Source: a virus (taxonomy: Duplodnaviria > Caudoviricetes). From it: 54,600 nt of DNA. The stretch is from positions 1 through 54,600 of the IMG/VR virus record IMGVR_UViG_3300009008_000048; one strand, 5' to 3'. The stretch's first letter is position 1. Every line of letters begins with the position of its first letter. The notes under the pieces were generated by a model. It saw only the letters and a list, made by a program, of their open reading frames with translations, had not been told where the DNA came from and did no database searches. Shown here piece after piece: positions 8,905 through 54,170 of this stretch. Made by a program: the position numbers and the translations under genes.

Positions 8905-10473
8905 TTATTTTTCTTTATATGGGGCTATTGTTATAGCCGCACCACTTGTTATTAATATACCTGCAGTTGCTACAGAGTTAGTTATTTCATTTTTTACTAC
9001 TTTAAATGGATCTATAATACCCTTTTCAAATAAATCGACATATTCATTATTAAGTGCATCATATCCTTTACCTGTTCTTAATACTTCTCCTATTATTGCA
9101 TCTGCATTTTCTCCCGCATTCTTTAATATTTTTCTCAAAGGCTTATTAAGCGCCTTTAATACTATTTCCTGCCCTGCTACAAATTCTTTACTGCTATCTA
9201 CAATAGCTATATCTTTACCTGCTTTTAATAATGCTATACCTCCACCCTCTACTATACCTTCTTGTATAGCTGAACGAGTAGCATTTAAAGCATCTTCTAT
9301 TCTATATTTAATTTCTGTTTGGTCTGTTTCTGAAGCTCCGCCTACTTTAATATTAGCTATTTGACCATTTAACTTACCAAGCCTTTCTTTTAACTTTTTA
9401 AGTTTAAATGTATCACCCTCTTCTTTTATTAAAGCTTTAACCTCTTCTATATTACCTTTAACATTTCCTTTGCCACCTGAAATAACTGTACTATCTCTAC
9501 CTATAATAACTTTATCACAAGTACCTAACTCATCTGCACCTGCATCTTCTATTTTAATTGATTCTTCTTTTCCTACTACTGTGGCCTCGGTTAATGTAGC
9601 TAAGTCTCTTAATAGATCCCCCTGATAACCGCCAAATGAAGGGTTATTAACAGGAACTATAGTAAACTTACCTAACATATGATTTTGAGCTAAAAATGCT
9701 AATGCTGCGCCTTCTATTTTATTAGCAAACAAAATTGCTTTATTATGCCCTGCTACTATTAATCTTTCTACTATAGGTATTAATTGGTTTGGATTATCTA
9801 TATCATCGCTACATATAATAACTTGTGGGTTTTCTGCTTCATAAGATAACCTTTTAGGATTATTTATAAAAACATGTGATTGATAACCATTATTTAACTC
9901 AATACCTTTAACATATTCCACTTTTGTTTCCATTTCTGAGGAATTAGTTACTGTAACAACACCATCTACACCTATTTTATTAACTACTTCCATAATAAGT
10001 TTACCCACCTTTTCATCGTTATTAGCAGATATAATAGCTGTTTGTAACTTTTCTTTATTGGTTTTTATTTGCTTTGTTTGTTTTTTAAGGTTCTTTAACA
10101 CTAATTGTAGCGCATAATCCATTCCCCTTTTAATTAAAATTGGGTTCATGCCTGCTACTATATATTTATTAGCCTCATTAACCATAGAGGCCAGCAATAC
10201 TACTGTTGAGGTAGTGCCATCACCAGCCTCTCGGTTCGTATTTTCGGCCGCCTCGCGTGTTATCATTACTCCCATATTCTCGAACTTATCCTTTAAGAAT
10301 ATCTGCTGAGCAACCGTGACCCCATCTTTAGTTATAGTTGGATAAGAACTATCTTCAAAGATAACATTTTGCCCTCTCGGACCCAATGTAGTCGATACAG
10401 CGTCTGCTGTTATATTTAAACCCCGTAGGATTTTTTCTCTAGCTTCTTGTCTAAATTTTAATTCTTTATACAT
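8905..10473 (-). CDS. groEL: Chaperonin GroEL-like
   Basis: TLGPRGQNV, ITKDGVTVA, AGDGTTS, KERLGKL, IKVGGASE, IEDALNATRSAIQEGIVEGGG, GIIDP.KV; 522 aa with no GGM tail. Confidence 0.95.
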   Translation of the reverse strand: MYKELKFRQEAREKILRGLNITADAVSTTLGPRGQNVIFEDSSYPTITKDGVTVAQQIFLKDKFENMGVMITREAAENTNREAGDGTTSTVVLLASMVNEANKYIVAGMNPILIKRGMDYALQLVLKNLKKQTKQIKTNKEKLQTAIISANNDEKVGKLIMEVVNKIGVDGVVTVTNSSEMETKVEYVKGIELNNGYQSHVFINNPKRLSYEAENPQVIICSDDIDNPNQLIPIVERLIVAGHNKAILFANKIEGAALAFLAQNHMLGKFTIVPVNNPSFGGYQGDLLRDLATLTEATVVGKEESIKIEDAGADELGTCDKVIIGRDSTVISGGKGNVKGNIEEVKALIKEEGDTFKLKKLKERLGKLNGQIANIKVGGASETDQTEIKYRIEDALNATRSAIQEGIVEGGGIALLKAGKDIAIVDSSKEFVAGQEIVLKALNKPLRKILKNAGENADAIIGEVLRTGKGYDALNNEYVDLFEKGIIDPFKVVKNEITNSVATAGILITSGAAITIAPYKEK

Positions 10474-12990: not shown

Positions 12991-13691
12991 TATTCTACTG
13001 CTAACTTATCAAACACTAAAGCTTCAAAAAATGTCCTGTCTTCTGCGGTACTAACACCTGTAAAACGACCTTTAGCAGATATTGTAGGTTTTGCTGCTGT
13101 ATAAGCATTCTTTGCTTCTGGTTGAAATGCCATCTCATCTGCAAATATACCACTAGCAGTATGCATACGAATAACATCGCCACCTTCAGGAATACCTCTA
13201 ATTTCGCTATGAATATCCGGAAACGTCATTTTACACCTAACGTGCTGGCCATTATGCTGTGGATTGCACTGTAGGGGCTTAAAAACACCGTTCTCTCGGT
13301 ATCTTTTAAGGAACTTAGGCATTTGGTCCCATATAAACTTTGTACGCTTTATAAGGTCGTCTGCGTCCTCTTCCCTTTTACTTTGAAAAAAGGTTAACCT
13401 GCCTTTATGAAAAAACGTATCCCAACCATATAATGCGGTAAATATCCAAGATATCATCATTTGACGACTCTTAGGTACTAGCAATAAAGGGTTTTTTAAC
13501 CAAATTTTTACTATTGTTTCAAGGTACTTCTTTTCCGGAAACGGTTTAATAGGATTATCCCTGTCATGTACATCTAAAGTATATGCCCAATTAGTTAAGA
13601 AATAATATGGGTCGTTTTTACACTTATCCCACTCTAAATCTTGTAATACTTTACTTTTTTTTAACTTCTTTAAATATTCAACTTTTAACAT
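12990..13691 (-). CDS. terL: Terminase large subunit, N-terminal ATPase part
   Basis: DPYYF, Walker A VPKSRQMMISW, Walker B IFADEMAF, coupling motif VSTA; the stop overlaps the next start (TAATG). Confidence 0.88.
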   Translation of the reverse strand: MLKVEYLKKLKKSKVLQDLEWDKCKNDPYYFLTNWAYTLDVHDRDNPIKPFPEKKYLETIVKIWLKNPLLLVPKSRQMMISWIFTALYGWDTFFHKGRLTFFQSKREEDADDLIKRTKFIWDQMPKFLKRYRENGVFKPLQCNPQHNGQHVRCKMTFPDIHSEIRGIPEGGDVIRMHTASGIFADEMAFQPEAKNAYTAAKPTISAKGRFTGVSTAEDRTFFEALVFDKLAVE

Positions 13692-18820: not shown

Positions 18821-19654
18821 ATGGATTTAATTATTACAAAAGAAGCATATCTTAAGCTCAAGTATTATATTGGGCTTGTAGATACTGAAATTTCTGGTAT
18901 GGGTAAAAGCCATATCGACAAGGACGGAGATATAATACTGTCAGACGTTATTATATTTCATCAAGAAGTCTCTGGGTCTAGCACGGATTTAGATGAAGCA
19001 TCAATGGCTAAGTTTTTATCTGAGCTAATGAAAAAGGGGGAAAAGACAGAGGAATGGAATGTTTGGTGGCACAGTCATGCAGACATGGATGTATTTTGGT
19101 CTTCTACAGATGATGATACAATAGCAGAACATTGTAATCACCAGAGTCATCTAATAAGTTTAGTTGGAAATAGAAAAGGCAAGTTCAAAGCTCGTTTAGA
19201 TTTATTTCCTAAAGATACTTCACCTTTTAATTACCAAGAAATACATTACAAGGAAGATGTAGATGTAAAAATAGAGGAAGACGATAGTAATACAGATGCT
19301 ATAGACAAGTTAGAAGACGCTATAGAGAAGGCATATCAAAAAATAGATAAGTATAAAGGTAAGAGCGATCCTGCTATACAAAAGGCTTGTCAAAAGGAAA
19401 TAGACGACAAGGTAACGGAGTATGTTGTCCCCAACAAAGTCACTAACAAATGGTCATGGACTGGTGATAATCAAGATGCTATAACTTATGACAATCAAGA
19501 TTGGAATGGTAGTCATTATAAAAATTATTACGATGATTATTATGGTGGCTATGAAATATGTATTGATTGTGGATATACACTAGAACAATGTGCTAAAAAC
19601 AAACAATGTCCTACATCAGAAGAAAATGATTCATTATTAAAATTAAACATATGA
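18821..19654 (+). CDS. JAB/MPN+ metallopeptidase (Ubl-processing/deconjugating)
   Basis: N-terminal EISG and WWHSHADMDVFWSSTD (E...HxH-x7-S-x2-D). Confidence 0.88.
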   Translation: MDLIITKEAYLKLKYYIGLVDTEISGMGKSHIDKDGDIILSDVIIFHQEVSGSSTDLDEASMAKFLSELMKKGEKTEEWNVWWHSHADMDVFWSSTDDDTIAEHCNHQSHLISLVGNRKGKFKARLDLFPKDTSPFNYQEIHYKEDVDVKIEEDDSNTDAIDKLEDAIEKAYQKIDKYKGKSDPAIQKACQKEIDDKVTEYVVPNKVTNKWSWTGDNQDAITYDNQDWNGSHYKNYYDDYYGGYEICIDCGYTLEQCAKNKQCPTSEENDSLLKLNI

Positions 19655-20280
19655 CAAATGAAAGACACAAGAGGTCATTAGATATAATTGACCCAGACAA
19701 ATTAGACTTTCCAATTCATATATTGGGAGTAGGAGGCATAGGAAGCTGGACTGCCCTAATCTTAGCCAAGATGGGAGCTTTAGATATTACTGTATATGAC
19801 GATGACGTAGTAGAAGACCATAATGTAGCTTCTCAATTTTACAAAGAAAGCCAATTAGGAGAAGAAAAGACAAAGGCTTTGGCTGATAATGTTTCAGAAC
19901 AGACAGGTGTTAAAATATTACCTATGCCTATATCAGGAGAAAGAAATATAAAAAAAGGTATAGTTATTATTGCTATAGATTCTATGGAAAGACGTCATAA
20001 AATAGCTGATAAATTAGAATATAGTATAAATTGGATAATAGATGGTCGTATGGGAGGCACACAATTTGAGATATATAGTCAACAAACAGAACTATATAAA
20101 GAAACTTTAGTAAATCCAGATGATGTTCATCCAGATGCCTGCACAGCGAAAGCTATAAGTTTCAATTGTTCTGTTATAGCAGGTATGATAGCTAATTATA
20201 TTAGATTATATGCTGATGGTAATAGAGATAAACACGCTATCACCTTTGGCTTTAACGATGTTGAATTATTAAAAGAATAA
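19651..20280 (+). CDS. E1/ThiF-family adenylating enzyme
   Basis: ILGVGGIGSW, YDDDVVEDHNVASQ, K..AL, AIDS..RR, IIDGRMG; Cys in PDACTAK. Confidence 0.9.
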   Translation: MTNERHKRSLDIIDPDKLDFPIHILGVGGIGSWTALILAKMGALDITVYDDDVVEDHNVASQFYKESQLGEEKTKALADNVSEQTGVKILPMPISGERNIKKGIVIIAIDSMERRHKIADKLEYSINWIIDGRMGGTQFEIYSQQTELYKETLVNPDDVHPDACTAKAISFNCSVIAGMIANYIRLYADGNRDKHAITFGFNDVELLKE

Positions 20281-29030: not shown

Positions 29031-29405
29031 ATGAGATTAAAAGTACAACATTTCTTTGATGCTAGTCATCAGTTACCAGACTCAGATGATTTAGTAACAA
29101 AGGCCTGTGCAACGATGCACGGCCACACTTACAAAGTTGTCGTGGACATAGAAGGAGAGAATAACAGGGGCGGAATGGTTGTAGATTTCAAAGCTGTTAA
29201 ACAAATAATAGATATATTTGACCATCAACACATTAATAAAGTATTAGATGAAAATCACTTTAAAGGTGAGGCTACTGCAGAAAATATGGCAATATTTCTA
29301 TTTAATAAAATAAAGGTCGATCTAAAATTAAACGTAAAAGGTGTTGCTGTATGTGAGGGCTATAAAGGAGAAGACAAAGCTTCGTGGGCAATTTATAATG
29401 GATAA
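29031..29405 (+). CDS. queD: 6-carboxy-5,6,7,8-tetrahydropterin synthase
   Basis: FDASHQL, C...HGHTY, GMVVDF..VK, FDHQ.IN, TAENMA, V.E. Confidence 0.93.
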   Translation: MRLKVQHFFDASHQLPDSDDLVTKACATMHGHTYKVVVDIEGENNRGGMVVDFKAVKQIIDIFDHQHINKVLDENHFKGEATAENMAIFLFNKIKVDLKLNVKGVAVCEGYKGEDKASWAIYNG

Positions 29406-29688
29406 TATGAAACATTTATTAAGTGCGGGTGATTATTATATTTTTTCTGGTAAATTTCAGTATACCGTTAAGAAGTTTGAAAACTTTTTAGACAATGGTG
29501 AAAGAGAGTATAGTGATCCAACATATCATACAACATTAATATCTGCACTAGAAGAATTAAACGAACGAATTAAAAAAGATAAGTTTACTAAATGTAAAGA
29601 TATTAAAGACATTATAACTCAACAAAAAGCAATAAACAAACAATTTTTAAAAGATATGAAAAAATATGAGAATAGCAAAAATGCCTAA
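29398..29688 (+). CDS. Hypothetical protein
   Basis: ORF between queD and queE; likely start ATG 29398 or 29407. Confidence 0.5.
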   Translation: MDNMKHLLSAGDYYIFSGKFQYTVKKFENFLDNGEREYSDPTYHTTLISALEELNERIKKDKFTKCKDIKDIITQQKAINKQFLKDMKKYENSKNA

Positions 29689-30397
29689 CGGCGAACCCGA
29701 GATATATGTTGCTGTACAAGGAGAAGGTAAGACAATAGGTGTACCATCTGTATTTGTAAGGTTATCGGGATGCAACTTACACTGTAAATGGTGTGACACA
29801 GCATATACTTGGAACTTTGAAAACACTCCATGGAAACATGATATAGAGGATAAACATAAAATAGATGAAATGCAATATGAAATAAGTGTTAAAAAGGTAG
29901 TAAAGAAAATTAAAGAAATAGCTCCACCTAATAAAAATGTAGTTTTCACAGGTGGTGAACCATTATTACAACAAGTAGAATTGTGGCAAGTAATGAAAGA
30001 ATTTAGTAACGATTGGACATTTGAAATAGAAACTAATGGCACTATAGAGTTTAACAAACAATTACTTCATAATGTGCTTGTTAATTGTAGTCCTAAGTTA
30101 GCTAATTCAGGTAATGATATAAACAAGCGATTAAACTATGATGTGTTGAACGCCATTAAAGTCGCTAATAGTATATTCAAATTTGTAATAGATGGTGAAG
30201 AGAGTTTAGCAGAAGTAGAAAAAATAGTTGAACAATTACAAATACCAAGAAACAAAATTTATTTAATGCCAGAAGGTATTGAAACAAATGATATTATAAA
30301 TGGAACTAGAGCACTATCTATTATATGTGCAGAACGAGGGTGGAATTTAAGTACTCGTCTACAAGTGATATTATATAATACAAAAAGAGCAGTTTAA
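29666..30397 (+). CDS. queE: 7-carboxy-7-deazaguanine synthase (radical SAM)
   Basis: QGEG..IGVPSVFVRLSGCNLHCKWCDT, TGGEPLLQ, IETNGT, SPKL, KFVI, LMPEG, RLQV. Confidence 0.95.
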   Translation: MRIAKMPNGEPEIYVAVQGEGKTIGVPSVFVRLSGCNLHCKWCDTAYTWNFENTPWKHDIEDKHKIDEMQYEISVKKVVKKIKEIAPPNKNVVFTGGEPLLQQVELWQVMKEFSNDWTFEIETNGTIEFNKQLLHNVLVNCSPKLANSGNDINKRLNYDVLNAIKVANSIFKFVIDGEESLAEVEKIVEQLQIPRNKIYLMPEGIETNDIINGTRALSIICAERGWNLSTRLQVILYNTKRAV

Positions 30398-30654: not shown

Positions 30655-30888
30655 ATGATTAAAGCAAAAGAACAATGGGTAGATGTTGAAATGGTAGATA
30701 TATGTTTTGATAACAACGAACAAAATATGGCTTTAATTAAATTCGATGATTTATTAGATCTTAATATGTACTTAGAACATGCTCAGAATGTAAAAAAAGT
30801 AAAGCTATTAACAGAGGGTAACCTATGGAAACTTAAAACAGTTTACTATGTGTTAGTGGACTATAAGGAGGAATACCAAAATGAGTAA
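30655..30888 (+). CDS. Hypothetical protein
   Basis: 77 aa inside the que cluster. Confidence 0.5.
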   Translation: MIKAKEQWVDVEMVDICFDNNEQNMALIKFDDLLDLNMYLEHAQNVKKVKLLTEGNLWKLKTVYYVLVDYKEEYQNE

Positions 30889-31591
30889 TGGCAAAGCACT
30901 AGTTATACTCTCGGGGGGTATGGACAGTACTACATTATTACATGATGTAGCTAATGGATATGCTGTACCAAGCATACTGGCATTAACTTTTGATTATGGT
31001 TCTAAACATAATAAAAAAGAGATAAGACAAGCTAAATATAATTGTAAAGTTTTAGGAATAGAACATATAATTATAAGAATGCAAGATGTATTTAAACACT
31101 TTAAATCTTCTTTATTAGAATCGGGAGATGATATACCAGAAGGACATTATAAAGATAGCAGTATGAAATCTACAGTAGTACCTTTTAGAAATGGTATATT
31201 ATTATCTATAGCAGCAGGTATAGCAGAATCTAAAAGTATTAGTAAAGTATTTTATGGTGCTCATGCAGGCGACCATGCTATATATCCAGATTGTACAGAT
31301 GAATTTGCACATAAGTTTAATGAGGCCACTCAGTTAGGTACTTATAATAATGTAGAAATATATGCACCTTACGAGGGTAAGAACAAGATAGATATAATTA
31401 AAAAAGGTATTGCTATAGGTGTTGATTATGGACATACTTGGACTTGTTATAAAGGCAAAGAGAATCCATGTGGTAAATGTGGTAGCTGTGTAGAACGTAC
31501 CGAAGCATTTATTAAAAATGATTTGAAAGATCCCTTATACACAGATAAACAATGGAAAGAAGCTGTAGAATTTTACAATAAATCTAAATAA
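30881..31591 (+). CDS. queC: 7-cyano-7-deazaguanine (preQ0) synthase
   Basis: LSGGMDST, FDYG.KH..E, TVVPFRNG, YPDC, TWTCY....PCGKCGSCVER. Confidence 0.96.
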   Translation: MSNGKALVILSGGMDSTTLLHDVANGYAVPSILALTFDYGSKHNKKEIRQAKYNCKVLGIEHIIIRMQDVFKHFKSSLLESGDDIPEGHYKDSSMKSTVVPFRNGILLSIAAGIAESKSISKVFYGAHAGDHAIYPDCTDEFAHKFNEATQLGTYNNVEIYAPYEGKNKIDIIKKGIAIGVDYGHTWTCYKGKENPCGKCGSCVERTEAFIKNDLKDPLYTDKQWKEAVEFYNKSK

Positions 31592-32102: not shown

Positions 32103-32669
32103 ATGCAAGATCAAACAAAACTTAAAAAAATAGCCGAAGAATTATTAAAGGAAATAGGTGATAATCCAAAAAGAATTGGGCTAAAAGATACACCTAAGCG
32201 TATGGCTAATATGTGGCAAGAGGTATTTAAAGGATACAATAGAAAACAAATGCCTGTAGTAACAGTATTTCCTAACAACGATGATGGTATTGTTTATGAT
32301 CAAATAGTAACTGATGAAGGTAAGTTTCATTCACACTGTGAACATCACATGGCTGTATTTTACGGCGATTATTACTTTGGTTATATACCAGATAAACATA
32401 TTATAGGCTTATCTAAAATAGCTAGATTAATAGAATATTTCGCCTCTAGATTACAGGTACAAGAAAGATTAGGTGCTAACATAGTAGATTACCTAGAAAA
32501 GAAATTACAACCAAAAGGTATTATACTTATAATGAAAGCACATCATACTTGTAAGGAAGCTAGGGGTGTTAAAAAAGAAGGCATAATGACAACCTCTGTA
32601 GTAAGGGGAGTATTTGCTAATGACGCATCCGCTAAAGAAGAGTTTTTATCATTAATTAACACTAAATAG
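32103..32669 (+). CDS. folE: GTP cyclohydrolase I
   Basis: [20 protein letters not shown]...[28 protein letters not shown]. Confidence 0.96.
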
Positions 32670-32670
32670 T

Positions 32671-34122
32671 ATGAGCGACAAATTAAAATCCCTTGGTAGT
32701 GGTAAAACTACCTACGAGTTCAAAAAAGAAGCACAACCAGAACTATTAGAATCTTTTACTAATAAACATCCTGGAGAAGATTATCTAATACCATTTAATA
32801 TGGAACGTGATGAGTTCACTTCATTGTGTGTATCAGGAGATACAAAAATAGATGTTGTTGGCAAAGATTTTCAAGGTAACATTAAAATAAAAGATTTAGT
32901 AGGCAAAACTGGTTATGCTTATTCATACTCTAACATAGAAAAAAGAATAGTATTACGTAAATTTAGTGATGTAAGAAAAACACAAAAAGATGCTGAATTA
33001 ATTGAAATTGAATACATAAATAAAAAAGGTAAAAAGTTTACATTAAAGCTAACAAAAGAACATCCTGTTATGTTACATAATGGAATATTTATTCCTGCCA
33101 GTGAATTAAACGAAAATGATAGTATTATGAGTTTCGGTAAATATACAATAAAAGGATATACTAATTTACATGATAAGAAAAATTATTATGCAGAACATAA
33201 ATTTATAGCAAAAGAATTACAAATTGATAATGAAATTATACATCATAAAAATCACAACAAACTGGATAACTGTTTAAATAATTTACTTCCTATGACATTA
33301 TCTAAACACAATCAACATCATAGATATAAACAATATAAGTATGAAGGAAAAATAACAAAAAAAATATTAGAACAAAAGTATTTAAAAGAATTAGAAACTA
33401 TAAGTAATATTGCTAGATATTTTAAATGTGATGATTCTACTATTTTTAATAGACTAATTAGATACAATATTCCTATAAGAACTAAAAAAGAAATATACGC
33501 TATTCAAAAAACACCTAACAAGATTAAAAAAAATATCGACCAAGTTATTAAATGGTATAAACAAGGATATTTATTATCTGAAATTGCAAGTGTGTTTAAT
33601 TGTCATAGTACAACAGTAAGTTCATGGCTTAAAGATGCGGGTGTTAAAATAAAAGAAAGCAATATTCAAAGATATAGTAGAAAAAAATTGTTGTTACCTG
33701 AATTAAATCACAAGATTGTTTCTATAAAATCAATACCTAAAGAAGATGTATATAATATGGAAGTACAAGATACTAATAACTTTGTAGCCAATGAAGCCGT
33801 ATTACATAATTGTCCTATGACAGGGCAACCAGACCAAGCACGTATGGAGATAGTATATGTGCCCAACAATAAATGTGTGGAATCTAAATCATTAAAACTA
33901 TATTTAATGTCTTACCGTATGTCTGGTGAGTTCCACGAAGATGTATGCAACAGAATAGCAAATGATTTATTTAATTTATTAGAACCTAAATACTTAAGAG
34001 TATATGGTGATTTTAGCCCTAGAGGTGGAATTGCTATAAGACCTATAGTACAACGCTGGGGTCATAGTTGGGTTGATAATAATATTATAAATCTAGTTAA
34101 TATGTGGGATATAAAGAAATGA
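32671..34122 (+). CDS. queF: NADPH-dependent preQ0 reductase QueF (155 aa after intein removal)
   Basis: LLESF.N.HP, EFTSL|CPMTGQPD, QueF motif [22 protein letters not shown]. Confidence 0.92.
32827..33810 (+). mobile_element. Intein (328 aa) with HNH endonuclease and HTH repeats in QueF
   Basis: Starts CVSGDTKI; block B LTKEHPVM; [19 protein letters not shown]; ends VYNMEV..NNF...VLHN followed by +1 Cys. Confidence 0.92.
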
Positions 34123-35138
34123 TACATAACAAATTTAACTTATTCTTCGCTGTAGCAGCTAAACAGTTCATGGAGTATGTGCTTACTTGTAATGTTAAGC
34201 ATATACTAATATCTTTTGCATACAAAGAACCGTGGCAAATGAAAGAACTGCTAAAGCGTAACAATGTAGATATTTTACTAGATAGTGGAGCATTCACAGC
34301 ATGGAACCAAGCACAGAAAAAGAAACAAGAAGGTAATACTAACTGGGAAAAGTACTTAATTGATATAGACGAATATGCTGCTTTTATGGAAGAGCATAAA
34401 GATATAATATGGCGTGCTGTAAACTTAGATGTTATTCCTGGAGAACAAGGTAAAGAACCTACAAAAGAACAATATATAGAATCAGCAGAACAAGGTTGGA
34501 AGAACTACTTGTACTTAAAAGAAAAAGGCTTTAATACTATTCATGTATTTCATCAAGGCGAACCATTAAAATATCTTACTCAAATGATAGATGGTGGCTG
34601 TGATTATATAGGTATAAGTCCTAATAACGATTACAGTGATAAAAAGAAAATGCTATGGCTTGATAGGGCATTTAGGCATATTAAAAATTCTAGTAATCCT
34701 GCAATTAAAACTCATGGCTTTGGTGTTACATCTAACGCCCTTATAGACAGGTATCCTTGGTTTAGCTGTGATAGTGCAGCTTATTGCTTATCAGCCGCTC
34801 TAGGCACTGTAGCAACGCCCTATGGCAAGGTTAATACCAGTGATAGAGATACAACAGATGCTAAACACATAGAGCAAAAACCAGCAATGGTTCAAAAGCA
34901 TATAGATGATTACCTAAAAAAGGAAATAGGCTATGGTTTAGGGTCTATGACCAAAACAGTAGAAGAACATAAGTTCGCATGCTCTAATTGTGATTACGAA
35001 ATAACAACACCTATTAAAATACAGGCTTACAAGGCTAGGAATTTTGCTAATATAGTCCACTTAATGAATAAGGAAAAAGAAATACAAGATAACCCAGAAC
35101 CTAATATGAGATTTGATGCTCAAAAAACATTATTATAA
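34119..35138 (+). CDS. dpdA: DNA 7-deazaguanine transglycosylase (DpdA, TGT fold)
   Basis: [50 protein letters not shown]; ATGA-coupled to queF. Confidence 0.88.
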
Positions 35139-35500: not shown

Positions 35501-35867
35501 ACCTAGATTTAGGCGTTGTGGGTCATTTGTAAATACTTATGATACTGCTAAGGCGGACAAGGAAGTTGTTCAACAAATAGTAAAACTTAAATATAAACCG
35601 AGTATTATAAAACCACCAATTAAAATGAAACTGGTGGCTTATATGCCTATTCCTAAATCTTTATCTAATAAAAAGAAAGAGGAGTTATTAGGCGAGTATC
35701 ATACTAAACGCCCTGATTTAGATAATATTGTTAAGTTTTATAAGGATGCTTTAGAGGGTATATGCTATAAAGATGATAGCCACATAAGTCACGAAGTATC
35801 TAAAAAGGTTTATGACAAAAACCCTAGAGTAGAAATTACCTTTCTAAGTCTTTGTAAAGATCTATAA
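35439..35867 (+). CDS. rusA: RusA-like Holliday junction resolvase
   Basis: IPGKPKAQPRPRF, KRPDLDNIVK..KDAL.G..YKDDSHI, K.Y...PRVEI. Confidence 0.9.
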   Translation: MNTTESIIEITIPGKPKAQPRPRFRRCGSFVNTYDTAKADKEVVQQIVKLKYKPSIIKPPIKMKLVAYMPIPKSLSNKKKEELLGEYHTKRPDLDNIVKFYKDALEGICYKDDSHISHEVSKKVYDKNPRVEITFLSLCKDL

Positions 35868-38800
35868 ATTCATCTCCGAAATTTTTTAAAGTAGGGTCAG
35901 CTGTTCTTAAAAGTTCTACATATTGTTTATGATATCTAGCTGTTGTATCTACTAATTTTTCTATTTGTTTTATTTTTTGGGCCTCACTTAATGTGTGGTC
36001 TTTTCTAATATTGTATATTTCCCATTCAACCTTTTTAGAAGCCTTTTTTATTTTATTTAATTGTATTTTTTTAGACTCGGATATATTTAAAGCTTTTACT
36101 TTTAAACCAAGCATAGTAGATAATATAGTAGAATTCAAAGATTGTAGCCTGCCTGTATAATCTGTATATTTATCTTTTTTAATAGTAATTTCTTTTATTT
36201 TCTGCTCTTTTTCTTTAATTGATAAATCAAGATCGTTTTGTATACTATCTAATTTATGTTGGTAGTAATTACCCATAATAGCTTTTTTAAGTTTTTCCCA
36301 ACCATAATTTCCAGGAGCCATTGAGGGCATTATTTGTTTGTAAGCATGTTCAGATGATGCACCTATTATTTGTTTAACACTACTGGATGTTGTATTGGTT
36401 AAATCTGGATCATATAGTTCTTCACCAGTAAATAATGATTTATTAAAGTATATCTCGGAAGGTATTCTGTATATAGGGTTTCCAAAAACCCAATTTTCAA
36501 GTAACTTAGAGGGGTCTTTAACTTCTTGAGAATAAGGAACAATATATGTTAAATCTATAAATTGAGGATCTCCGTTTTTATCTAGTGTAGGAGCTAGTAT
36601 AAAAAGCCCCTTTTTCATATAACTAGGAAATGATTTTTTTGCATTTTCAACATCTTCATCGTCCCATCCAAGAGCTGCTTTTGATATCGCTTGTATTGCT
36701 TTTGAAACAGCCCACCATTTAGCTAATGTTACTGGTCTGGTTGCAGCTGCTTCTACTAGTCTAGGAGCCACCAATACTGGAAATCTTAAAAAAGGAATAC
36801 CATACCATTTAGTACTATACTTTTGCCAGAAAGTTGTTACGGCACTATAATCTAACCCCCACTTTTTAGCAAATTTTGCTGCATCGCTAGGTGTCATTTT
36901 TAAATCTTTTCTAGCATACAAATATAGCCCCATTTTATTCCATTGTTCTTCTGCTTCATATAATTCTGTTAACTTGGCATCTCCTTTAGCAACTATATTT
37001 TTAGTATTTTCTAAAATATCTTTAATAGTTAACGTACCTTCTTTTAATTGTAATGCTTGTTTCTTACTCATTACAGTACTTAACTCATTGCCAGCCCAAC
37101 TACTTTTAAATAGTAATGCTTTTCTTGCTTCAGTATAAAGATCTCCCTTTTTAAGTACTTGTTCAAAGGCTTCTGTCCATATATCTACTCTAGTAGGAGA
37201 TAGCCCAGCTATATCAGATAATATAAAGTTAAAATACATATTTCTAAAATGAGTACTAGGATTATAAATAACTTTCCATTTCTTCCATATCATCAACCCT
37301 TTATTCATTACTTTTTTAGATTGTTCTTGTATTTCAAAAGTACCAACAACATCTTTGTATATTTCGGATTTTACAAACATACCTTTTAAATCTCCGTAAG
37401 CATCGTTTCTGGGCATTAATTCAAATCCCTTTTTATATTCTTTAGATGCAAACTCTTTATTTTCTGCTATTTTTTTAAGAAAAGATAAATATGCTACATC
37501 ATGCCCTACGGTTTTTGCAGTTTTATATACAACCCATTCAGGAGAATCTAAAATTGCCCCCATTTCTTCTTTCTCTTTTTTAGTCCAATCTCTCCACATA
37601 ACAACTTCACCCTTTTTAGCATTTTTTTGTTCTTTAGATATTTTCCAACCCATACCTTTTTCTGAGTATTTTTTTACTTGTTTTTCAGGCACTGCCTCTG
37701 TAACACCCTTTGACATAGCTCTTTTTAATGAAGCTTTAGAGCCACCTTTATTTAAATAATTTTTAACAACATTAAACATGGATTTATTATAATAAAAACT
37801 AGCCAAATAATATCCTTTATTAGCCTCGTAAACTTCTTGAGATATTGCACCAGATTTATAATATTGTTCACCCAACCTATCAATCAACCGTCTGGCTGCT
37901 TTAGCCCTTGCTTGTATATCAGCGTCTGGATGATTACCATTATTAACTATAGCTTGGTGTAGTTGTATTTTTTGTTCTATATCTAATCCATTGGATAGAT
38001 TTTCAAGCATTTCTTCGGCTAATAAATCTATATGTACTTTTTCTTTTTCTAATATTTCTTTAGCGTTTTTATACCAATCTGGCCAGTTATGTTCATGTAT
38101 AAATTTACCACCAAACCATTTATAAAATGGTTGTTCATTTATCCATTTACTAGTTGCTGTCCATACATTTTGTGCTCCACTAGTTTTCCATGCTGCATCT
38201 CTAGCCTTTAGAAATACTTTATTAAGATTTTGTTCTAGTTCATTGATTGGCCTAGATACTTCCTGAACTATTTTACCAACTGGTTTAGCTACCCTACCAA
38301 TTACCTTACCAGCAACCTTACCAACTGGTTTAGCTACTTTACCAACAACCCTACCAACTGGTGGAGCTACTTTAGCAATTATATTTGCAGGAATTAATAT
38401 AGGAGCATATAATAGTGACTCTAAAGTTATAAACCCGTAATTATTTTCTATGTATCTACCCAATATTACAGATTTTGAAAATAAGGGCTTAACATTAGTC
38501 TTTTTTTCTTTTTCAGATTCTTTTTTAAATGAATCTATAAAGTACTTTTTAGTCTTACCTCTACTTTTTAAAGCCTCAAGTTCTTCCATGTATTTATCTT
38601 CTGCTTTTTCTTTTGCTTGCTTTTTAACTTCATCTTTTATAGACCTATCCTTTTCTATTTTTTTAATATCAGTTATTTTTGTTTGTTTTGAATTCCAATT
38701 ATATAAAAAGTCTTCTATTATTTGTGCTTTTTCATAGTTTTCCTTTTCAAATTCTTTATCATACATTTCTTGAAATACGTCTATGGTTAAACCTCTATCT

Positions 38801-41800
38801 TTTAATGTTTGTAAATGTTTACTATAATCCTGTTCCGCTTTTGGCTCAGATTTAAAATCTTTTTCTGTTGTTATTTTTCCAGTATTAGTATTAACCAAAA
38901 GTGTTTGCTCAACCATTTTTTCAGCCTCTTTTAAACTATTAGCTCCACCCATATCATATATATATTTGGCCTTAGATTCTGGAGTACCATTTTTATAATC
39001 AACTTCATACCTAGATGCTTTCTTTTTAAGCTCTTTTTCCTTTTTTATAGTTTCTCGTCTTTTAGCCTCCCTACGTTTACTTCTTTCAAAGTTTAGTCTT
39101 TGCATTTCAGTATGTTTATCTTTTCCTATAAAAATGCCTTGTTTCCTATCTCGTGCCTCTCTGAATAAGCGCTTACGTAATTGTGCATCACTTTCAGCTT
39201 TCTTAGGTCTGCCAACTGGTTTAACTGTTTTCTTTTTTTCAAGTTGTAATCTACCTGCTTCTAGTAATTCTTTCTGTGCCTTGTTCCATATGTCGGTGAG
39301 TTGTTGTCCTTCTGAAATATAGTCAACCCATATTCCATCGTCAACCTTGCTTTGTAACTTTCTTAATGCTTTTAATGAATCTTTAAATCGCCATTCTCCA
39401 TAAGCAACTATTGCATCTTGGGCTGTTTTTTGTGCATCATTGTAAACTGGTAACTTCTTATGTTCTTCTGTATAATTTTTAGAAAGTTCTTTTATTTTTT
39501 TTGTTTGCGATGCTACTGTTTCTCCTTCTAATTTACCTTGGCTTTGTCTATACCTGAGATTACTTTCTATCTGTTCTCTTACTTCCTTTTCGAACCCATA
39601 CTCCCTTGATAAATATCTTATAAGATTTCTAATCTTTGGCTTTGCATACTCGCCCTTAAGACTTGACTGCTTTTCATTCATTCTGTGAGTTAAATCTCCT
39701 ATATGCTCTAGCCCCCATCCATATAGTTGGGATATTTGAGAATGAGCGGCTTTTAGCATAGCAGATTCTGGTTTAACCCTTTGTTGTTGTGCCAAGTCAT
39801 CAAAAGTTTTTTGCTTGAACTCCTCAGCACTCTTATACTTCTTGGCTTCTTGAATTAGGGATTGGTTTGGTTTGACTTCTTCTGTATATTTTTTAGGTTT
39901 TTTAGCAAGTTTTTTATCTATATAGAAATTCTTTTTAGCAACCTTACCCATAAAAGAACGACTACCTTGTCTGCCTGCAGTAAAGGTTCTAGCAGAACCA
40001 CTTGATGTAAACGGTGTTGATGCACCCTTAGATATTGCTTTTCTCTTAGTAACAGGCTCTTTAACAGTTGTTCTCGCAGCCGTAACAGGCCTTTTAACGG
40101 CTTTAACAGCTTTTTTGGTAGTAGGCACTGGCTTTATCTTTTTAACCCTTGTAACAGCCTTTAAAGTATCTGCGACACTTATAGGTTTTTCATCTACTTG
40201 TATTTTGCTAGGTTTTTCATCTACTTGTATTTTGCTAGGTTTTTCATCTACTTGTATTTTGCTAGGTGCAACCTTTTTAGTTCCTGTATGTTTAATTGTT
40301 CTTCCTGAAGCACTTAAATGATAATTTTTAGCAGTTTCTTTTTTGTCTGCAAAAAATTCATTCTTTTGTAAATCAAAATATTCTACACCTTTTTGTGGCT
40401 TATGAGAATTATTAAATTTAATAGTATTAAAAGTATTTTTATAATAACTTCTTAAAAAGTTACTAGAATTAACCCAAAAGTCTTTGCTTGTTAATATAAC
40501 AGTTATCTCATTAGCAACTTTTTTATCATTAGTAGTTTTATATATATCTTTTAATGCGTCAATTTGGTCATTTTTAAATTCTTTAATATTATCAAAAGAA
40601 CGTTTAGTTTTAGTAACACCCTCAACTGTTCCTCTATACACTGTAACAGCACTAATTGTTTTTTGTCTTTTGCTAGGACTAACAGTCTTTTGTACTCTGC
40701 TAACAGCACTACTATCACCTCGTAAATTAAACGTTCTTGCCGTTTTCGGTATTTTTGAATAACCCCCCTCTTTACCAGTAAGCGCAGATATATTAGCTAT
40801 ACGTAGTTCGTTTGTGTTTCTTTTTTGTTTAATAACATTATCTAGTCCTTGACCAGTAGTATCATAAAACCAAGATTTAATTTGTTCTTGTACTTCAGGA
40901 GATTTGTTACCTATATAAGATTTACTTTTAGGACTTAATGAAACATACCCATAAGGTGTAGCTATTTGTTTAAACGCAGCTGAAAGATATGGTGTTGCTG
41001 CATCAACAGAATTAAAAGGGAATTTATTTAATAACCTTTTAGCCCCTACCCCTAGTGCATGAGTGCTAACATTAGGATTACTAGAGTTTTTAATATGATC
41101 AAATACTTTTGTTAACCATTTATCTTTTACATTGATACTTACACTATTATTTGGACTAATAGCTATATAGTTATATTCTTTATGAGCTTCTGCTAATAAT
41201 TCATCTAAGTAATCCATTGATTCACCTTGGTGAAATACTTGCATAACTTTATGCCCTTTAGATTTTAGATATTTATAGTTCTCTTTACTTTTTTGTTGTG
41301 CTTTTAATGCCTGTGCTTTAGTAACCTTTTTACCAGGACTAGAAGGTATTACATCTAAGTTAATAGCTGTAAAATAATTGCCATCCATACTATCTAAAAA
41401 TTCGGAATATTCTTCCACTGTAGCAGGTTTATTTCCTTTATTCCATGTAGTAAAAGCACCAGAGTCTATAATTAAGTTAACCCCTTTACTTTTTAGACTT
41501 TTTATATAATTGGGTGTGAACTTACCTTTATAAGCATAACTTATAAGTACATCTTTATTTCCAGATTGTATTGCATTTTCCGCTGCTACTTTAGTTCCTG
41601 CAGAAACAAATTTTCTAGTTTCTGGTTTATAAGGCGCTGTTTCAGGACCATACACTGTTTTCTCTTTTTCTCTTTTTGCAATAGTATTTTCTACGTTATT
41701 TATAATTTTTGACAAAACTTCTTGTTGTTTCTTATTACCACTTTTTTTTGCTTTAGCTAATTCATTTTTTAAGTTAGCAATAAGTCGCTTTGATTTATCA

Positions 41801-43185
41801 ATTTCTTCAACCTGTGCAGTATCTGTCATTTGAAATGCATAAGAGTTTAATCTATTTGAAGGTTTTGGTATAAATACCGATGCTGTTGTTGGATCAGCAG
41901 CAGGTAGCCCTAACGGTTTTTGTTGCGTAGGTAATTCAGTAAATTTTTCTGGTGTAGGTAGTTCTAATGGTTTATCAAGCACTTCAGGTTGGTTTTTATT
42001 TTTATCATATTTAGAATAACCATATTGTGATACTGATATACCTGCTTGTGAAATTAGTAATACTGATATTTCTACACCTAGATCATCTACAGTTAACCCT
42101 TCGAAAGGCTGGTCGCCTAACCCTAATTTATATAATGCATCATTTAAAATATCTGCATCTCTTTCTTCAAAAAACTCATTAACAAAACCATTCCAACCAA
42201 CCATTTTAGTTAATTTAGTAAACTTATTAGGTGTAAGTTTAGGAATTTTCTTTTGCATTGCTTTATAAATAGCAGTTTTAACGATTACTGTTCTAGCAGG
42301 CTTTGTTAATAATGCAGTAACCTTTTTAGGAAGTTTACCTGAAACACCACTCATTCTTTCTGATAATATTTCAACTGCGTGTCCAGTAGATGCATTAACA
42401 ATTGATTCTAATATACCTTGGCCCTCTTCAAGTACTTCTCCAGTTTCTGTATCTATAACACCTATTTGTCTTTGTAATGCTTCGTGTGGAATATTAAATA
42501 CACCAGTAATAGCTATTTCTTTAGCTGTTTTTACTGCTGCTTTTTTTACATGTTCTTTAACAACCTTTCTTAATGCCTTATCTTTTACTACATTTTTAAG
42601 AGCTTCTAATACAGCTTTTTTACCTGATTTCTTGGCAACAAGAGCCCATAATGAACCAGTCCCAGTAGGTCCAGCCATAAGAGCAGCAAGCCCAAGTTCT
42701 GCAGCAAAAGTAGCGGTTTCTCTTAATCCGCTACCTATTTCATAGCCCCATCCCCCTGATTCTCTTAATTCTTGTTGTCTGTCAAGCTCGTTATAATAAT
42801 TGTCTAAAATTTTATAGTGTTTATCTTCGGCTGTTTTATTTTTTATTTTATTTGATGCTAAAAGGACTATACCCAAATCTGTTGTTTCTTTAATATCTCC
42901 AGCAAATGGAATATCATAAGTACTAGCTTCTTCACCCCATCCTTTATGAAAATCACCTAACTCGGTTCTTTTTTTAGTTTGTATATCTTTTTCTACTTGC
43001 TGTGGCTGTTGTTGCCGTTGTTGCTGTGGCTGTTGTTGCCGTTGTTGCTGTAATTGTGTTAACTGCTGTGATTTAGCTACATTATGCTTGTCAAACACAC
43101 TTTCAGACACAGTTAAATCAAATATACTAGGTCTTTTTTGTTGAAGTTGTTTACGTTCTTTTATTAGTTCTTCTAATGTTTTCAT
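35836..43185 (-). CDS. Giant (2449 aa) multidomain putative internal virion/ejection protein with embedded DpdA-like domain
   Basis: Last and largest gene of the tail/ejection operon; helical N- and C-terminal regions (NPSTHFRN, DYS, PF..F) separated by low-complexity linkers and inserted domains. Confidence 0.75.
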   Translation of the reverse strand: MKTLEELIKERKQLQQKRPSIFDLTVSESVFDKHNVAKSQQLTQLQQQRQQQPQQQRQQQPQQVEKDIQTKKRTELGDFHKGWGEEASTYDIPFAGDIKETTDLGIVLLASNKIKNKTAEDKHYKILDNYYNELDRQQELRESGGWGYEIGSGLRETATFAAELGLAALMAGPTGTGSLWALVAKKSGKKAVLEALKNVVKDKALRKVVKEHVKKAAVKTAKEIAITGVFNIPHEALQRQIGVIDTETGEVLEEGQGILESIVNASTGHAVEILSERMSGVSGKLPKKVTALLTKPARTVIVKTAIYKAMQKKIPKLTPNKFTKLTKMVGWNGFVNEFFEERDADILNDALYKLGLGDQPFEGLTVDDLGVEISVLLISQAGISVSQYGYSKYDKNKNQPEVLDKPLELPTPEKFTELPTQQKPLGLPAADPTTASVFIPKPSNRLNSYAFQMTDTAQVEEIDKSKRLIANLKNELAKAKKSGNKKQQEVLSKIINNVENTIAKREKEKTVYGPETAPYKPETRKFVSAGTKVAAENAIQSGNKDVLISYAYKGKFTPNYIKSLKSKGVNLIIDSGAFTTWNKGNKPATVEEYSEFLDSMDGNYFTAINLDVIPSSPGKKVTKAQALKAQQKSKENYKYLKSKGHKVMQVFHQGESMDYLDELLAEAHKEYNYIAISPNNSVSINVKDKWLTKVFDHIKNSSNPNVSTHALGVGAKRLLNKFPFNSVDAATPYLSAAFKQIATPYGYVSLSPKSKSYIGNKSPEVQEQIKSWFYDTTGQGLDNVIKQKRNTNELRIANISALTGKEGGYSKIPKTARTFNLRGDSSAVSRVQKTVSPSKRQKTISAVTVYRGTVEGVTKTKRSFDNIKEFKNDQIDALKDIYKTTNDKKVANEITVILTSKDFWVNSSNFLRSYYKNTFNTIKFNNSHKPQKGVEYFDLQKNEFFADKKETAKNYHLSASGRTIKHTGTKKVAPSKIQVDEKPSKIQVDEKPSKIQVDEKPISVADTLKAVTRVKKIKPVPTTKKAVKAVKRPVTAARTTVKEPVTKRKAISKGASTPFTSSGSARTFTAGRQGSRSFMGKVAKKNFYIDKKLAKKPKKYTEEVKPNQSLIQEAKKYKSAEEFKQKTFDDLAQQQRVKPESAMLKAAHSQISQLYGWGLEHIGDLTHRMNEKQSSLKGEYAKPKIRNLIRYLSREYGFEKEVREQIESNLRYRQSQGKLEGETVASQTKKIKELSKNYTEEHKKLPVYNDAQKTAQDAIVAYGEWRFKDSLKALRKLQSKVDDGIWVDYISEGQQLTDIWNKAQKELLEAGRLQLEKKKTVKPVGRPKKAESDAQLRKRLFREARDRKQGIFIGKDKHTEMQRLNFERSKRREAKRRETIKKEKELKKKASRYEVDYKNGTPESKAKYIYDMGGANSLKEAEKMVEQTLLVNTNTGKITTEKDFKSEPKAEQDYSKHLQTLKDRGLTIDVFQEMYDKEFEKENYEKAQIIEDFLYNWNSKQTKITDIKKIEKDRSIKDEVKKQAKEKAEDKYMEELEALKSRGKTKKYFIDSFKKESEKEKKTNVKPLFSKSVILGRYIENNYGFITLESLLYAPILIPANIIAKVAPPVGRVVGKVAKPVGKVAGKVIGRVAKPVGKIVQEVSRPINELEQNLNKVFLKARDAAWKTSGAQNVWTATSKWINEQPFYKWFGGKFIHEHNWPDWYKNAKEILEKEKVHIDLLAEEMLENLSNGLDIEQKIQLHQAIVNNGNHPDADIQARAKAARRLIDRLGEQYYKSGAISQEVYEANKGYYLASFYYNKSMFNVVKNYLNKGGSKASLKRAMSKGVTEAVPEKQVKKYSEKGMGWKISKEQKNAKKGEVVMWRDWTKKEKEEMGAILDSPEWVVYKTAKTVGHDVAYLSFLKKIAENKEFASKEYKKGFELMPRNDAYGDLKGMFVKSEIYKDVVGTFEIQEQSKKVMNKGLMIWKKWKVIYNPSTHFRNMYFNFILSDIAGLSPTRVDIWTEAFEQVLKKGDLYTEARKALLFKSSWAGNELSTVMSKKQALQLKEGTLTIKDILENTKNIVAKGDAKLTELYEAEEQWNKMGLYLYARKDLKMTPSDAAKFAKKWGLDYSAVTTFWQKYSTKWYGIPFLRFPVLVAPRLVEAAATRPVTLAKWWAVSKAIQAISKAALGWDDEDVENAKKSFPSYMKKGLFILAPTLDKNGDPQFIDLTYIVPYSQEVKDPSKLLENWVFGNPIYRIPSEIYFNKSLFTGEELYDPDLTNTTSSSVKQIIGASSEHAYKQIMPSMAPGNYGWEKLKKAIMGNYYQHKLDSIQNDLDLSIKEKEQKIKEITIKKDKYTDYTGRLQSLNSTILSTMLGLKVKALNISESKKIQLNKIKKASKKVEWEIYNIRKDHTLSEAQKIKQIEKLVDTTARYHKQYVELLRTADPTLKNFGDEFIDLYKDLER
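40182..40262 (-). repeat. In-frame 27-bp tandem repeat x3 (PSKIQVDEK)
   Basis: TAGGTTTTTCATCTACTTGTATTTTGC three times on the + strand. Confidence 0.9.
40779..41616 (-). other. DpdA/TGT-like transglycosylase domain inside the giant protein
   Basis: [69 protein letters not shown], all colinear with 34119..35138. Confidence 0.88.
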
Positions 43186-53513: not shown

Positions 53514-54170
53514 TCATACTTTTTTAGTTACTTGTTTTAATACAAGTTTAGCTATTTTGTTTAAATCTATTGTTTTATAGTGTGAACAAGAATAACCCCA
53601 GTGTGTCCATAGTTTAAAACCTTTTTGTTCTACTTTTTCACAAAATGCTAAATCTTCACCCATTACTCTTTCCCCTGTTTCCTTATTAATTATAGATTCA
53701 AAAGGCCTTTTCATACCCTCTAAAACTTCCCTTTTAATAAGAATGCACCCAGTTCCCCCTCTATCTATGCGTACTAATTTACGCCCACCAGTATACAGCA
53801 TAGTTATAAGCCCTTTATCATGCTGTTTAAACACGTTGTAAGCCATTTTATCGCCTTTATACATTAAAGTGGGGCATACTATCACATCTTTATTAAAAGC
53901 TATTAAATCTAACGGATTATTTAATGGAGCATTATCATCATCCATCATAAGAAGCCATTTACAATCTGTTTTAAGGAACTCTGTTACAATTTTATTTCTA
54001 TTATGATCTATACCACATAATTGAGAATATCTTACTGTTGGTTCATATTTTTTAGTTGTAATACAATGTGTTACAATATCTACCATCATATTAGCTACAC
54101 TAATTGTTACGCTACCTTGATTTGGTATTGCTACAAATATAGGTATAGGACTACATTTTCTTTTTGACAT
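53514..54170 (-). CDS. GT-A fold (GT2-like) glycosyltransferase, paralogue of 2580..3236
   Basis: RNKIV..FL, WLLMMDDD, GTGCILIKREVL, GEDLAFC....KGF..WTH...CSHYKT. Confidence 0.75.
   Translation of the reverse strand: MSKRKCSPIPIFVAIPNQGSVTISVANMMVDIVTHCITTKKYEPTVRYSQLCGIDHNRNKIVTEFLKTDCKWLLMMDDDNAPLNNPLDLIAFNKDVIVCPTLMYKGDKMAYNVFKQHDKGLITMLYTGGRKLVRIDRGGTGCILIKREVLEGMKRPFESIINKETGERVMGEDLAFCEKVEQKGFKLWTHWGYSCSHYKTIDLNKIAKLVLKQVTKKV

Follow-up and report, generated by a model that had tools for sequence, protein, structure and literature searches.

DpdA is a member of the tRNA-guanine transglycosylase (TGT) family that exchanges guanine in DNA for a 7-deazaguanine, and, to our knowledge, all of the 7-deazaguanine DNA modification described so far is the work of free DpdA enzymes acting after replication. 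The phage enzymes of the DpdA1 type (phrog_887), which include those of CAjan, 9g, Dp-1 and Cellulophaga phiSM, have been described or retrieved as free proteins of approximately 200-470 amino acids (aa). In the viral record examined here (IMG/VR IMGVR_UViG_3300009008_000048; linear, CheckV completeness 86%, GC content approximately 31%), which is analysed as a single window of 54,600 bases, a free DpdA of this type is also present, whereas a second copy is an internal domain of a 2449-aa protein encoded by the last gene of the virion module.

The closest described systems for such an arrangement are the polyvalent proteins, which have been proposed to be delivered together with DNA and for which the DNA methylase DarB is an example (Iyer et al. 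2017, PMC5512222). In the main text of that study, the LPD38 domain is listed as specific to phage-type polyvalent proteins, a zincin-like metallopeptidase for processing is pervasive but not universal, and a word search for 'TGT', 'queuine', 'queuosine' and 'deazaguanine' returned nothing. The Dar system of phage P1 acts in cis and protects only co-packaged DNA (PMC12707154). Virion-borne polyvalent proteins that modify DNA are known, whereas a DpdA-class transglycosylase as cargo is undescribed in the literature searched. This agrees with an earlier sequence-only reading of the same DNA, which knew of no virion-delivered DpdA: outside the supplementary homologue tables of PMC6884629 and PMC10516641, the sources searched contain neither a virion-borne nor a fused form.

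The giant protein resembles the LPD38-bearing polyvalent proteins in being a very large product of the late module that combines a conserved, putatively LPD-like module with variable cargo; in the structural relatives of its module, the cargo is of the ART-PolyVal, Zeta, helicase, RelA/SpoT or lysozyme type, whereas this protein carries DpdA. With P1 DarB, a virion-packaged methylase-helicase, it shares the concept of a DNA-modifying domain in a very large capsid-borne protein, although its own packaging is inferred. The DarB architecture (LPD36, adenine methylase, SF2 helicase) is not found in the giant protein, in which family scans detected neither methylase nor helicase families, and the chemistry differs, as base exchange needs a free 7-deazaguanine base. 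DarB is thus a functional analogy only, with no homology shown.

The embedded DpdA domain

BLASTP aligns residues 526-786 of the giant protein with residues 14-284 of the stand-alone DpdA, with 103 of 277 positions identical (37%), 151 of 277 positive and an E-value of 2e-52. This similarity is far beyond chance, and bears out the claim of the sequence-only reading that about 280 residues of the 2449-aa open reading frame (ORF) match the stand-alone enzyme. A six-frame search of the record detected DpdA in exactly two places, 34104-35135 (+) and 40825-41610 (-), the second at E 9.3e-51 (167 bits, 39%). The coordinates proposed in that reading, 40779..41616, translate to residues 524-803 and fit the confidently folded part of the model described below (residues 524-804), and all of the motifs that it quoted were located: DSGAF at 574, NLDVIP at 609, VFHQGE at 650, ISPNN at 676, HIKNSSNP at 697, THALGV at 708, SVDA at 726 and ATPYG at 742.

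Both copies match phrog_887, annotated as queuine tRNA-ribosyltransferase (embedded copy, 1.6e-39 over residues 530-798; stand-alone copy, 2.2e-50), and neither matches a Pfam (including TGT) or NCBIfam model at E ≤ 0.1. A tblastn search of 50,697 phage records retrieved the annotated DpdAs of Cellulophaga phage phiSM and its relatives, of Streptococcus phage Dp-1 and of 9g/CAjan-like coliphages; the phiSM enzyme is a free 240-aa protein within a que cluster. Sequence searches against solved TGTs produced chance matches only, both by phmmer with the stand-alone DpdA and by hmmsearch with a 97-row profile, and the fold was therefore established by modelling. An AlphaFold2 model of residues 500-830, based on the alignment of relatives, has a mean predicted local distance difference test score (pLDDT) of 88.3 and a predicted TM-score (pTM) of 0.84, with a beta/alpha barrel pattern over residues 524-804. 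Foldseek found 172 matches to this model in the PDB at E ≤ 0.001, and all 50 of those listed are tRNA-guanine transglycosylases, led by human TGT (7nq4_A, E 1.5e-8, TMq 0.58). The sequence-only reading depended on the domain modelling as a TGT barrel, and a TGT-type barrel is what AlphaFold2 and Foldseek give. The DpdA that the phage encodes as a free protein has a complete paralogue in the embedded domain, which very probably belongs to the phage DpdA family with a TGT-type fold.

Catalytic and conserved residues

In the CAjan DpdA, Asp63 is the base-activating residue and proposed general acid/base, Asp206 is the proposed nucleophile, and the pocket includes Ser64, Phe67, Asp105, His132, Gly153, Gly154 and Phe189 (PMC7544227); in the Salmonella DpdA, the two equivalent Asp residues are essential (PMC10164549). 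The CAjan sequence was aligned with 99 relatives of the embedded domain, and the corresponding residues are listed in Table 1. The pairing of D611 with CAjan Asp105 is taken from the profile alignment (hmmalign), as MAFFT placed CAjan three columns off. D574, D611, H652 and D728 occupy invariant columns in the 97-row alignment, and the three Asp residues that had been thought to be retained at TGT positions do align with CAjan Asp63, Asp105 and Asp206. As judged from the alignment, the full published catalytic set is kept in the embedded copy. The Ser-Pro state of the ISPNN loop is common to the embedded copy, the stand-alone copy and phiSM.

The embedded copy preserves 16 of the 17 columns conserved in at least 90% of the 99 relatives, compared with 14 for CAjan, and 24 of the 28 conserved in at least 80%, the same number as CAjan. 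By this measure, its conservation is no worse than that of the CAjan enzyme. The four departures from consensus are G615S, S729A, G739K and R791T.

Relationship of the two DpdA copies

The best match of the embedded copy anywhere is the DpdA of its own genome (167 bits, against 129 bits for the best library sequence). In a 99-row tree, the embedded copy is sister to a six-member clade, and the resulting seven-member group has a support of 81 in the Shimodaira-Hasegawa-like approximate likelihood ratio test (SH-aLRT). Within the six-member clade, the stand-alone copy pairs (SH-aLRT 98) with the free 344-aa DpdA of another viral locus, L004, to which it is 58% identical. The position of the embedded copy is unresolved in a 36-row tree (LG+G4). 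The approximately unbiased (AU) test rejects none of the placements compared, namely sisterhood with the own copy (p 0.405), with the own copy plus that of L004 (p 0.46) and with the six-member clade (p 0.506, with a likelihood slightly above that of the free tree).

These comparisons place the embedded domain in the same DpdA lineage as the stand-alone copy. The proposal that the phage duplicated its own enzyme fares less clearly: the closest match is indeed the phage's own DpdA, but the tree pairs the stand-alone copy with the DpdA of a different phage, and the AU test rejects neither arrangement. A recent duplication within the genome is thus neither shown nor rejected by the sequences at hand.

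Continuity of the giant ORF

The frame of the giant ORF is open and stop-free over 7.35 kb. Two Logan contigs, built independently of the IMG/VR assembly, run across the domain and both of its junctions: a contig of 2789 bases from run X1 covers 40238-43026 with no differences, and one of 2177 bases from run X2 covers 40238-42414 with a single difference. These are the two runs, labelled marine metagenome, that contain the giant gene; they represent two samples of one study and may be the source samples of the record, and they thus argue against an assembler artefact rather than for an independent discovery. The junction evidence is drawn from X1 and X2, and runs X3 and X5, which hold only small parts of the stretch, were left out. 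The sequencing runs listed for the stretch included no RNA run. Because both junctions are bridged by contigs from two marine samples, an assembly chimera, a concern raised in the sequence-only reading, is unlikely. Contig ends fall among the SKIQVDEKP repeats, near 40211-40265, where breaks are to be expected.

The frame has no Met close to where the domain starts and no stop behind the domain, and a separate DpdA protein could therefore arise only via proteolysis. Base composition across the embedded domain is not unusual. The linker that follows the repeats is strongly basic, with 28 Lys and Arg against 3 Asp and Glu in residues 1001-1100.

The carrier protein and its C-terminal module

Detectable relatives of the giant protein are limited to its last 800-970 residues. 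Over that part, it shares 34-38% identity with four proteins of 1523-1611 aa, and BLASTP and phmmer find nothing in common between their N-terminal halves and the giant protein except a weakly matching 'FQM-helix-GP' motif, which lies at a similar distance from the N-terminus in these relatives and after which the DpdA domain begins approximately 10 residues later. The module also occurs in a 3999-aa protein that carries ResIII helicase and RadC domains. In IMG/VR, an alignment-based scan located it at 26 loci, and an open frame, of 809-1857 aa, was determined for 25 of these (all except L022). The C-terminal module recurs in viral proteins with other cargo domains.

Several distant members of this family point to the virion. 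Among eight distant module-bearing proteins scanned, three match phrog_22602 ('virion structural protein') and none has a Pfam match. With one distant member (L023) as the query, tblastn led in Cellulophaga phages phi18:3, phi13:2 and phi19:3 to the structural gene that comes last, in a Pelagibacter phage to a 'putative structural protein', and in a Pseudoalteromonas phage to a protein with the annotation ADP-ribosyltransferase (ART). According to its GenBank record, the 1935-aa phi18:3 gp123 is a 'structural protein', with an annotation derived from experimental tandem mass spectrometry (MS/MS) proteomics of virions, and a second-round profile of the module reaches it at E 1.5e-34 (database size set to one million).

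The module models as all-alpha (pLDDT 71.6), and Foldseek returned 53 BFVD matches at E ≤ 0.001, with top names including ART-PolyVal-like, Zeta toxin, Helicase/UvrB, 'Large polyvalent protein associated domain', LPD38, RelA/SpoT and LT_GEWL. Its ESM features point to LPD38 clusters (0.97-0.98). Together, fold and features, which are the sole basis for this assignment, suggest that the module belongs to LPD38. One BFVD match is a 1114-aa protein of Anabaena phage A-4L (E 5.1e-6), and only ORF26L of A-4L has that length. In the cryo-EM study of phage A4, the pre-ejectosome comprises four ejection proteins, gp26 among them, and both gp26 and gp27 contact the spooled DNA directly (PMC12002296). 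The resemblance of the predicted fold to A-4L gp26 is treated as a lead; both gp123 and gp26 are distant, and neither matched the DpdA part of the giant protein. A PDB row for the module named 'Cyanophage A4 pre-ejectosome' (E 2.5, prob 0.02) is not evidence.

DpdA is the only enzymatic domain identified in the giant protein. The gene is the last of the virion module, after the terminase, portal, capsid and tail genes, as had been supposed from the sequence. The giant protein is most likely a phage-type polyvalent protein, and it is probably virion-associated.

Distribution of the fusion

A DpdA match inside the large frame was found in none of the 26 module-bearing IMG/VR loci, and a DpdA anywhere in the locus was found in one, the closest relative (L004). 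There, the free DpdA frame converges with the orthologue of the giant gene, which encodes 1616 aa, and apart from the insertion the arrangement is that of the window. A HMMER search of 1.84 billion representatives detected 2151 relatives of the domain at E ≤ 1e-3, and the best 150 of the 2151 are proteins of 204-466 aa, none of them with this fusion. The open frames of DpdAs from the same subclade in 41 IMG/VR loci measure 231-646 aa, and again none of the 41 shows this fusion. No fused forms were detected in close-relative scans of IMG/VR with the whole giant protein and with the domain, or in a Joint Genome Institute (JGI) metagenome scan with residues 440-830. A word-index protein search at 1346-4286 aa and 440-1402 aa also returned no fused long forms; this search is insensitive here, as at 440-1402 aa it missed two 466-aa relatives (P0060 and P0156) that HMMER had found in another library (their presence in the collection searched was unchecked). 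The sequence-only reading had called for a survey of phage ejection proteins for TGT domains; in the surveys made here, the fusion was found in no other protein. The fusion is a singleton so far, seen in one uncultured contig.

Two further loci gave seemingly long DpdA frames. The 646-aa frame of L061 (7974-9911, +) was considered as a long fused DpdA and rejected, as approximately 320 inserted residues interrupt what is otherwise a DpdA of this subclade; the insert begins with Cys, directly precedes the nucleophile motif (S-x-D-S) and looks intein-like, with no Pfam match. In L074 (5684-7090, +), a 469-aa frame joins a divergent DpdA-like N-terminal part to a phage serine protease domain of the XkdF type (PF14550, 3e-31). 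Its first half matches the family hidden Markov model (HMM) at 5e-13, with no recognisable VFHQGE motif, and it may represent another route by which a fold resembling DpdA is tied to capsid assembly.

Possible roles of the embedded domain

The explanation favoured overall, with a probability of roughly 0.45, is by analogy that of a polyvalent carrier whose DpdA cargo acts in cis at entry. The conserved C-terminal module of approximately 800 aa would place the giant protein in the particle, probably in an internal position or in the ejection apparatus, and the long variable part ahead of it would carry the cargo, here the DpdA paralogue. The free DpdA would most likely modify replicated DNA, while the tethered copy would be packaged with the genome, enter the next cell together with it and act in cis on the entering phage DNA. 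It might insert 7-deazaguanine from the host preQ pool at unmodified sites, or cover its targets, ahead of restriction and of defences that sense modification. Packaging and entry are inferred from the protein family, the position of the gene, the MS/MS-detected homologue and the polyvalent-protein concept, and action in cis is favoured because of the analogy with P1 Dar. Delivery with action at entry is tentatively put forward, at somewhat less than even odds.

A particle-borne DpdA would add base-exchange chemistry to the concept of injected antirestriction enzymes, known from P1 DarB and the polyvalent proteins, and would raise the questions of whether an entering genome can be modified or shielded using the host's own queuosine precursors, and of whether the two paralogues prefer different motifs or bases. 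The embedded domain would also provide a natural case for a TGT barrel working within a much larger protein. Such a fusion would surprise specialists in phage DNA modification, and it is directly testable.

A number of observations weigh against delivery and action at entry. An incoming genome should already carry the modification made in the previous host, and TGT-type base exchange is slow, so that protection at time zero is not obviously effective. The phage is known from the sequence of one uncultured marine contig, on which the whole case stands, and as the fusion did not recur in any survey made, there is no evolutionary sign of selection maintaining it. In the domain itself, one departure from consensus lies beside the nucleophile (DS to DA, residue 729), and the branch leading to the embedded copy in the 99-row tree is long (1.62, against a median of 0.86). 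The CxxC-bearing insert of approximately 23 residues, which the stand-alone copy shares with its L004 orthologue, is also missing from the embedded copy. Because of this difference, and because the giant protein, unlike the stand-alone paralogue, is free of cysteine (0 of 2449 residues), a TGT-like zinc site is absent; a structural zinc site is conserved in TGTs and bacterial DpdA (PMC10164549).

The carrier assignment has weak points as well. In contrast to typical polyvalent proteins, no metallopeptidase domain or other processing peptidase family was found in the giant protein by family scans, and the Pfam LPD38 HMM does not match it; LPD14 falls below its cut-off (18.1 against 27 bits). 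The C-terminal module has no PDB match by Foldseek at E ≤ 0.001. The link to gp123 is distant, with a pairwise BLASTP E-value of 3.6e-6 against the giant protein, and the link to A-4L gp26 is not significant by sequence (profile E 0.47; BLASTP 0.072).

Alternatively, the tethered DpdA may work in the producing cell, as a late second transglycosylase at or in the procapsid core that finishes the DNA during packaging, perhaps with another sequence motif or base preference, and that would end up in the particle only incidentally. The intact catalytic set, the location of the gene within the late virion module, the ISPNN loop typical of most relatives in both copies and the contact of A4 gp26 and gp27 with spooled DNA are consistent with this, as is the partial modification of guanines (0.1-30%) reported for phage DpdA1 enzymes (PMC10516641), to which a second enzyme could add coverage. 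However, there is no sign of free base reaching an enzyme inside the procapsid, and no other phage in the surveys uses this solution. This alternative is considered unlikely.

A less probable alternative is that the domain mainly serves as a DNA-binding, base-flipping module, which holds the genome on an internal core or shields 7-deazaguanine sites during entry from modification-sensing host glycosylases or nucleases. Shielding is plausible because host glycosylases that attack 7-deazaguanine DNA exist, and the preprint concerned speculates on virion-packaged countermeasures (10.1101/2025.10.29.685425). The faster divergence of the embedded copy relative to the stand-alone copy, its four mismatches, one of them adjacent to the nucleophile, among the 28 columns with at least 80% conservation, and the very basic linker after the domain would suit a binding role. 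However, all three Asp residues, the His and the stacking Phe are kept, none of which is required for pure binding, and the conservation score is within the range of the experimentally studied CAjan enzyme.

The delivered enzyme might instead be a host-directed effector, in the manner of other polyvalent cargo, that exchanges or removes guanine in the DNA or tRNA of the infected cell. Structural relatives of the carrier module have host-directed cargo according to their UniProt names (ART-PolyVal, Zeta toxin, RelA/SpoT), and the TGT superfamily includes tRNA enzymes. However, the nearest relatives of the domain are all DpdAs of the phage DNA type, it groups with the DNA enzyme of its own genome, and the few molecules in a virion could change only a few sites. 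This role is therefore improbable.

A far more speculative form of delivery is that the DpdA domain stalls in the capsid, where no free base is available, at the covalent intermediate of the TGT mechanism between Asp728 and C1', tethering the genome to the ejection apparatus until guanine or preQ from the host pool completes the exchange and resolves the link. If this very remote idea were true, a base-exchange enzyme would have come to serve as a reversible covalent DNA anchor and pilot. Finally, it is highly improbable that the fusion is an assembly chimera or that the giant protein is not a virion component: the record is a single, linear contig that is 86% complete, the two runs holding the giant gene in full come from one study and may be its source, and no relative has the fusion, but separately built contigs of two samples span both junctions, one with no difference and the other with a single one, no stop interrupts the 7.3-kb frame, the domain is of ordinary composition, and the family of the C-terminal module has an MS/MS-detected virion protein.

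Genomic context and additional observations

The two virion blocks of the window lie on the minus strand (Table 1), and the second of them also contains a weak match to 'internal virion protein' and a protein with a cell-wall peptidase-like N-terminus. Between them, the plus strand carries early genes and a full 7-deazaguanine pathway, followed by the stand-alone DpdA and RusA. The precursor pathway is thus encoded in the same genome as both DpdA copies, and the genome makes preQ1-type bases. No tRNA genes were found in the window, and the window ORFs scanned, which are a part of the total, gave no match to tape-measure, sheath or tube proteins.

Table 1. Features of the 54,600-base window; residue numbers refer to the giant protein unless CAjan or another protein is named
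Feature	Coordinates	Strand	Remarks
Giant ORF, 2449 aa	35836..43185	-	Last gene of virion module; putative polyvalent-type protein
'FQM-helix-GP' motif, residues 449-515	41641..41841	-	Short, weak: blastp-short E 1.8e-4, to protein P0004 only
Embedded DpdA/TGT-barrel domain, residues 524-805	40771..41616	-	BLASTP, phrog_887, AlphaFold2, Foldseek
D574 codon (DSGAF)	41464..41466	-	CAjan D63, proposed general acid/base
S575			CAjan S64
F578			CAjan F67
D611 codon (NLD)	41353..41355	-	CAjan D105, base recognition; hmmalign
H652 codon (VFHQGE)	41230..41232	-	CAjan H132
S677/P678			CAjan G153/G154; Ser-Pro is the majority state (S in 79/100 rows, P in 76/100)
L711			CAjan F189; Leu in 27/100 rows
D728 codon (SVDA)	41002..41004	-	CAjan D206, proposed nucleophile
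Three tandem SKIQVDEKP units, then very basic K/P/T-rich linker	39886..40263	-	
All-alpha C-terminal module, LPD38-like, residues ~1647-2449	35839..38247	-	Shared part of protein family
Stand-alone DpdA	34104..35138	+	Likely ATG start 34119; convergent with giant gene
QueD (PTPS)	29031..29405	+	PF01242, 1.2e-23
QueE-like radical SAM protein	29666..30397	+	
QueC	30881..31591	+	PF06508, 3.8e-59
FolE (GTP cyclohydrolase I)	32103..32669	+	3.1e-57
QueF with intein inside (HNH and helix-turn-helix (HTH) parts)	32671..34122	+	QueF 7.6e-29, its residues 387-461; Intein_splicing 2.9e-11, its residues 70-380
First virion block	14411 -> 235	-	Terminase small and large subunits, GroEL homologue, portal, homing endonuclease, major capsid protein
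Second virion block	54450 -> 35836	-	Tail/structural proteins; closed by the giant ORF

In the giant protein, residues 818-985 (window 40231-40734, -), which follow the DpdA domain, contain a YRG motif that we take to be a possible ART sign, and Atlas leads point to PARP/ART-PolyVal clusters at 0.82-0.83. With these leads all below 0.9 and no Pfam HMM match, an ART domain is suspected and not claimed, and the region may be a second cargo domain. Another relative of the giant protein (P0005) has a DnaJ-like J-domain at residues 252-281, just below the Pfam cut-off (26 against 27.8 bits).

Several other features of the genome were noted. The large terminase is split over two ORFs of 233 and 675 aa (10963-13691, -), the longer of which also carries an HNH endonuclease (phrog_15471, 2.8e-25), and the interruption may be of the homing-endonuclease or intein type. 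A GroEL-type chaperonin gene (8905-10473, -; phrog_5725, 3.6e-128) lies between the terminase and portal genes, and a homing endonuclease (4531-5244) between the portal and capsid genes. Among the early genes, a ThiF/E1-like protein (PF00899, 4.7e-19) adjoins a protein with a weak JAB-domain match (E 0.0024) at 18821-20280 (+), forming an E1 plus deubiquitinase-like pair. Within the virion module, each end of the record has one of two 218-aa paralogues, 2580-3236 (-) and 53514-54170 (-); the two share a match to phrog_1574, a family of unknown function, and weaker matches to glycosyltransferase families.

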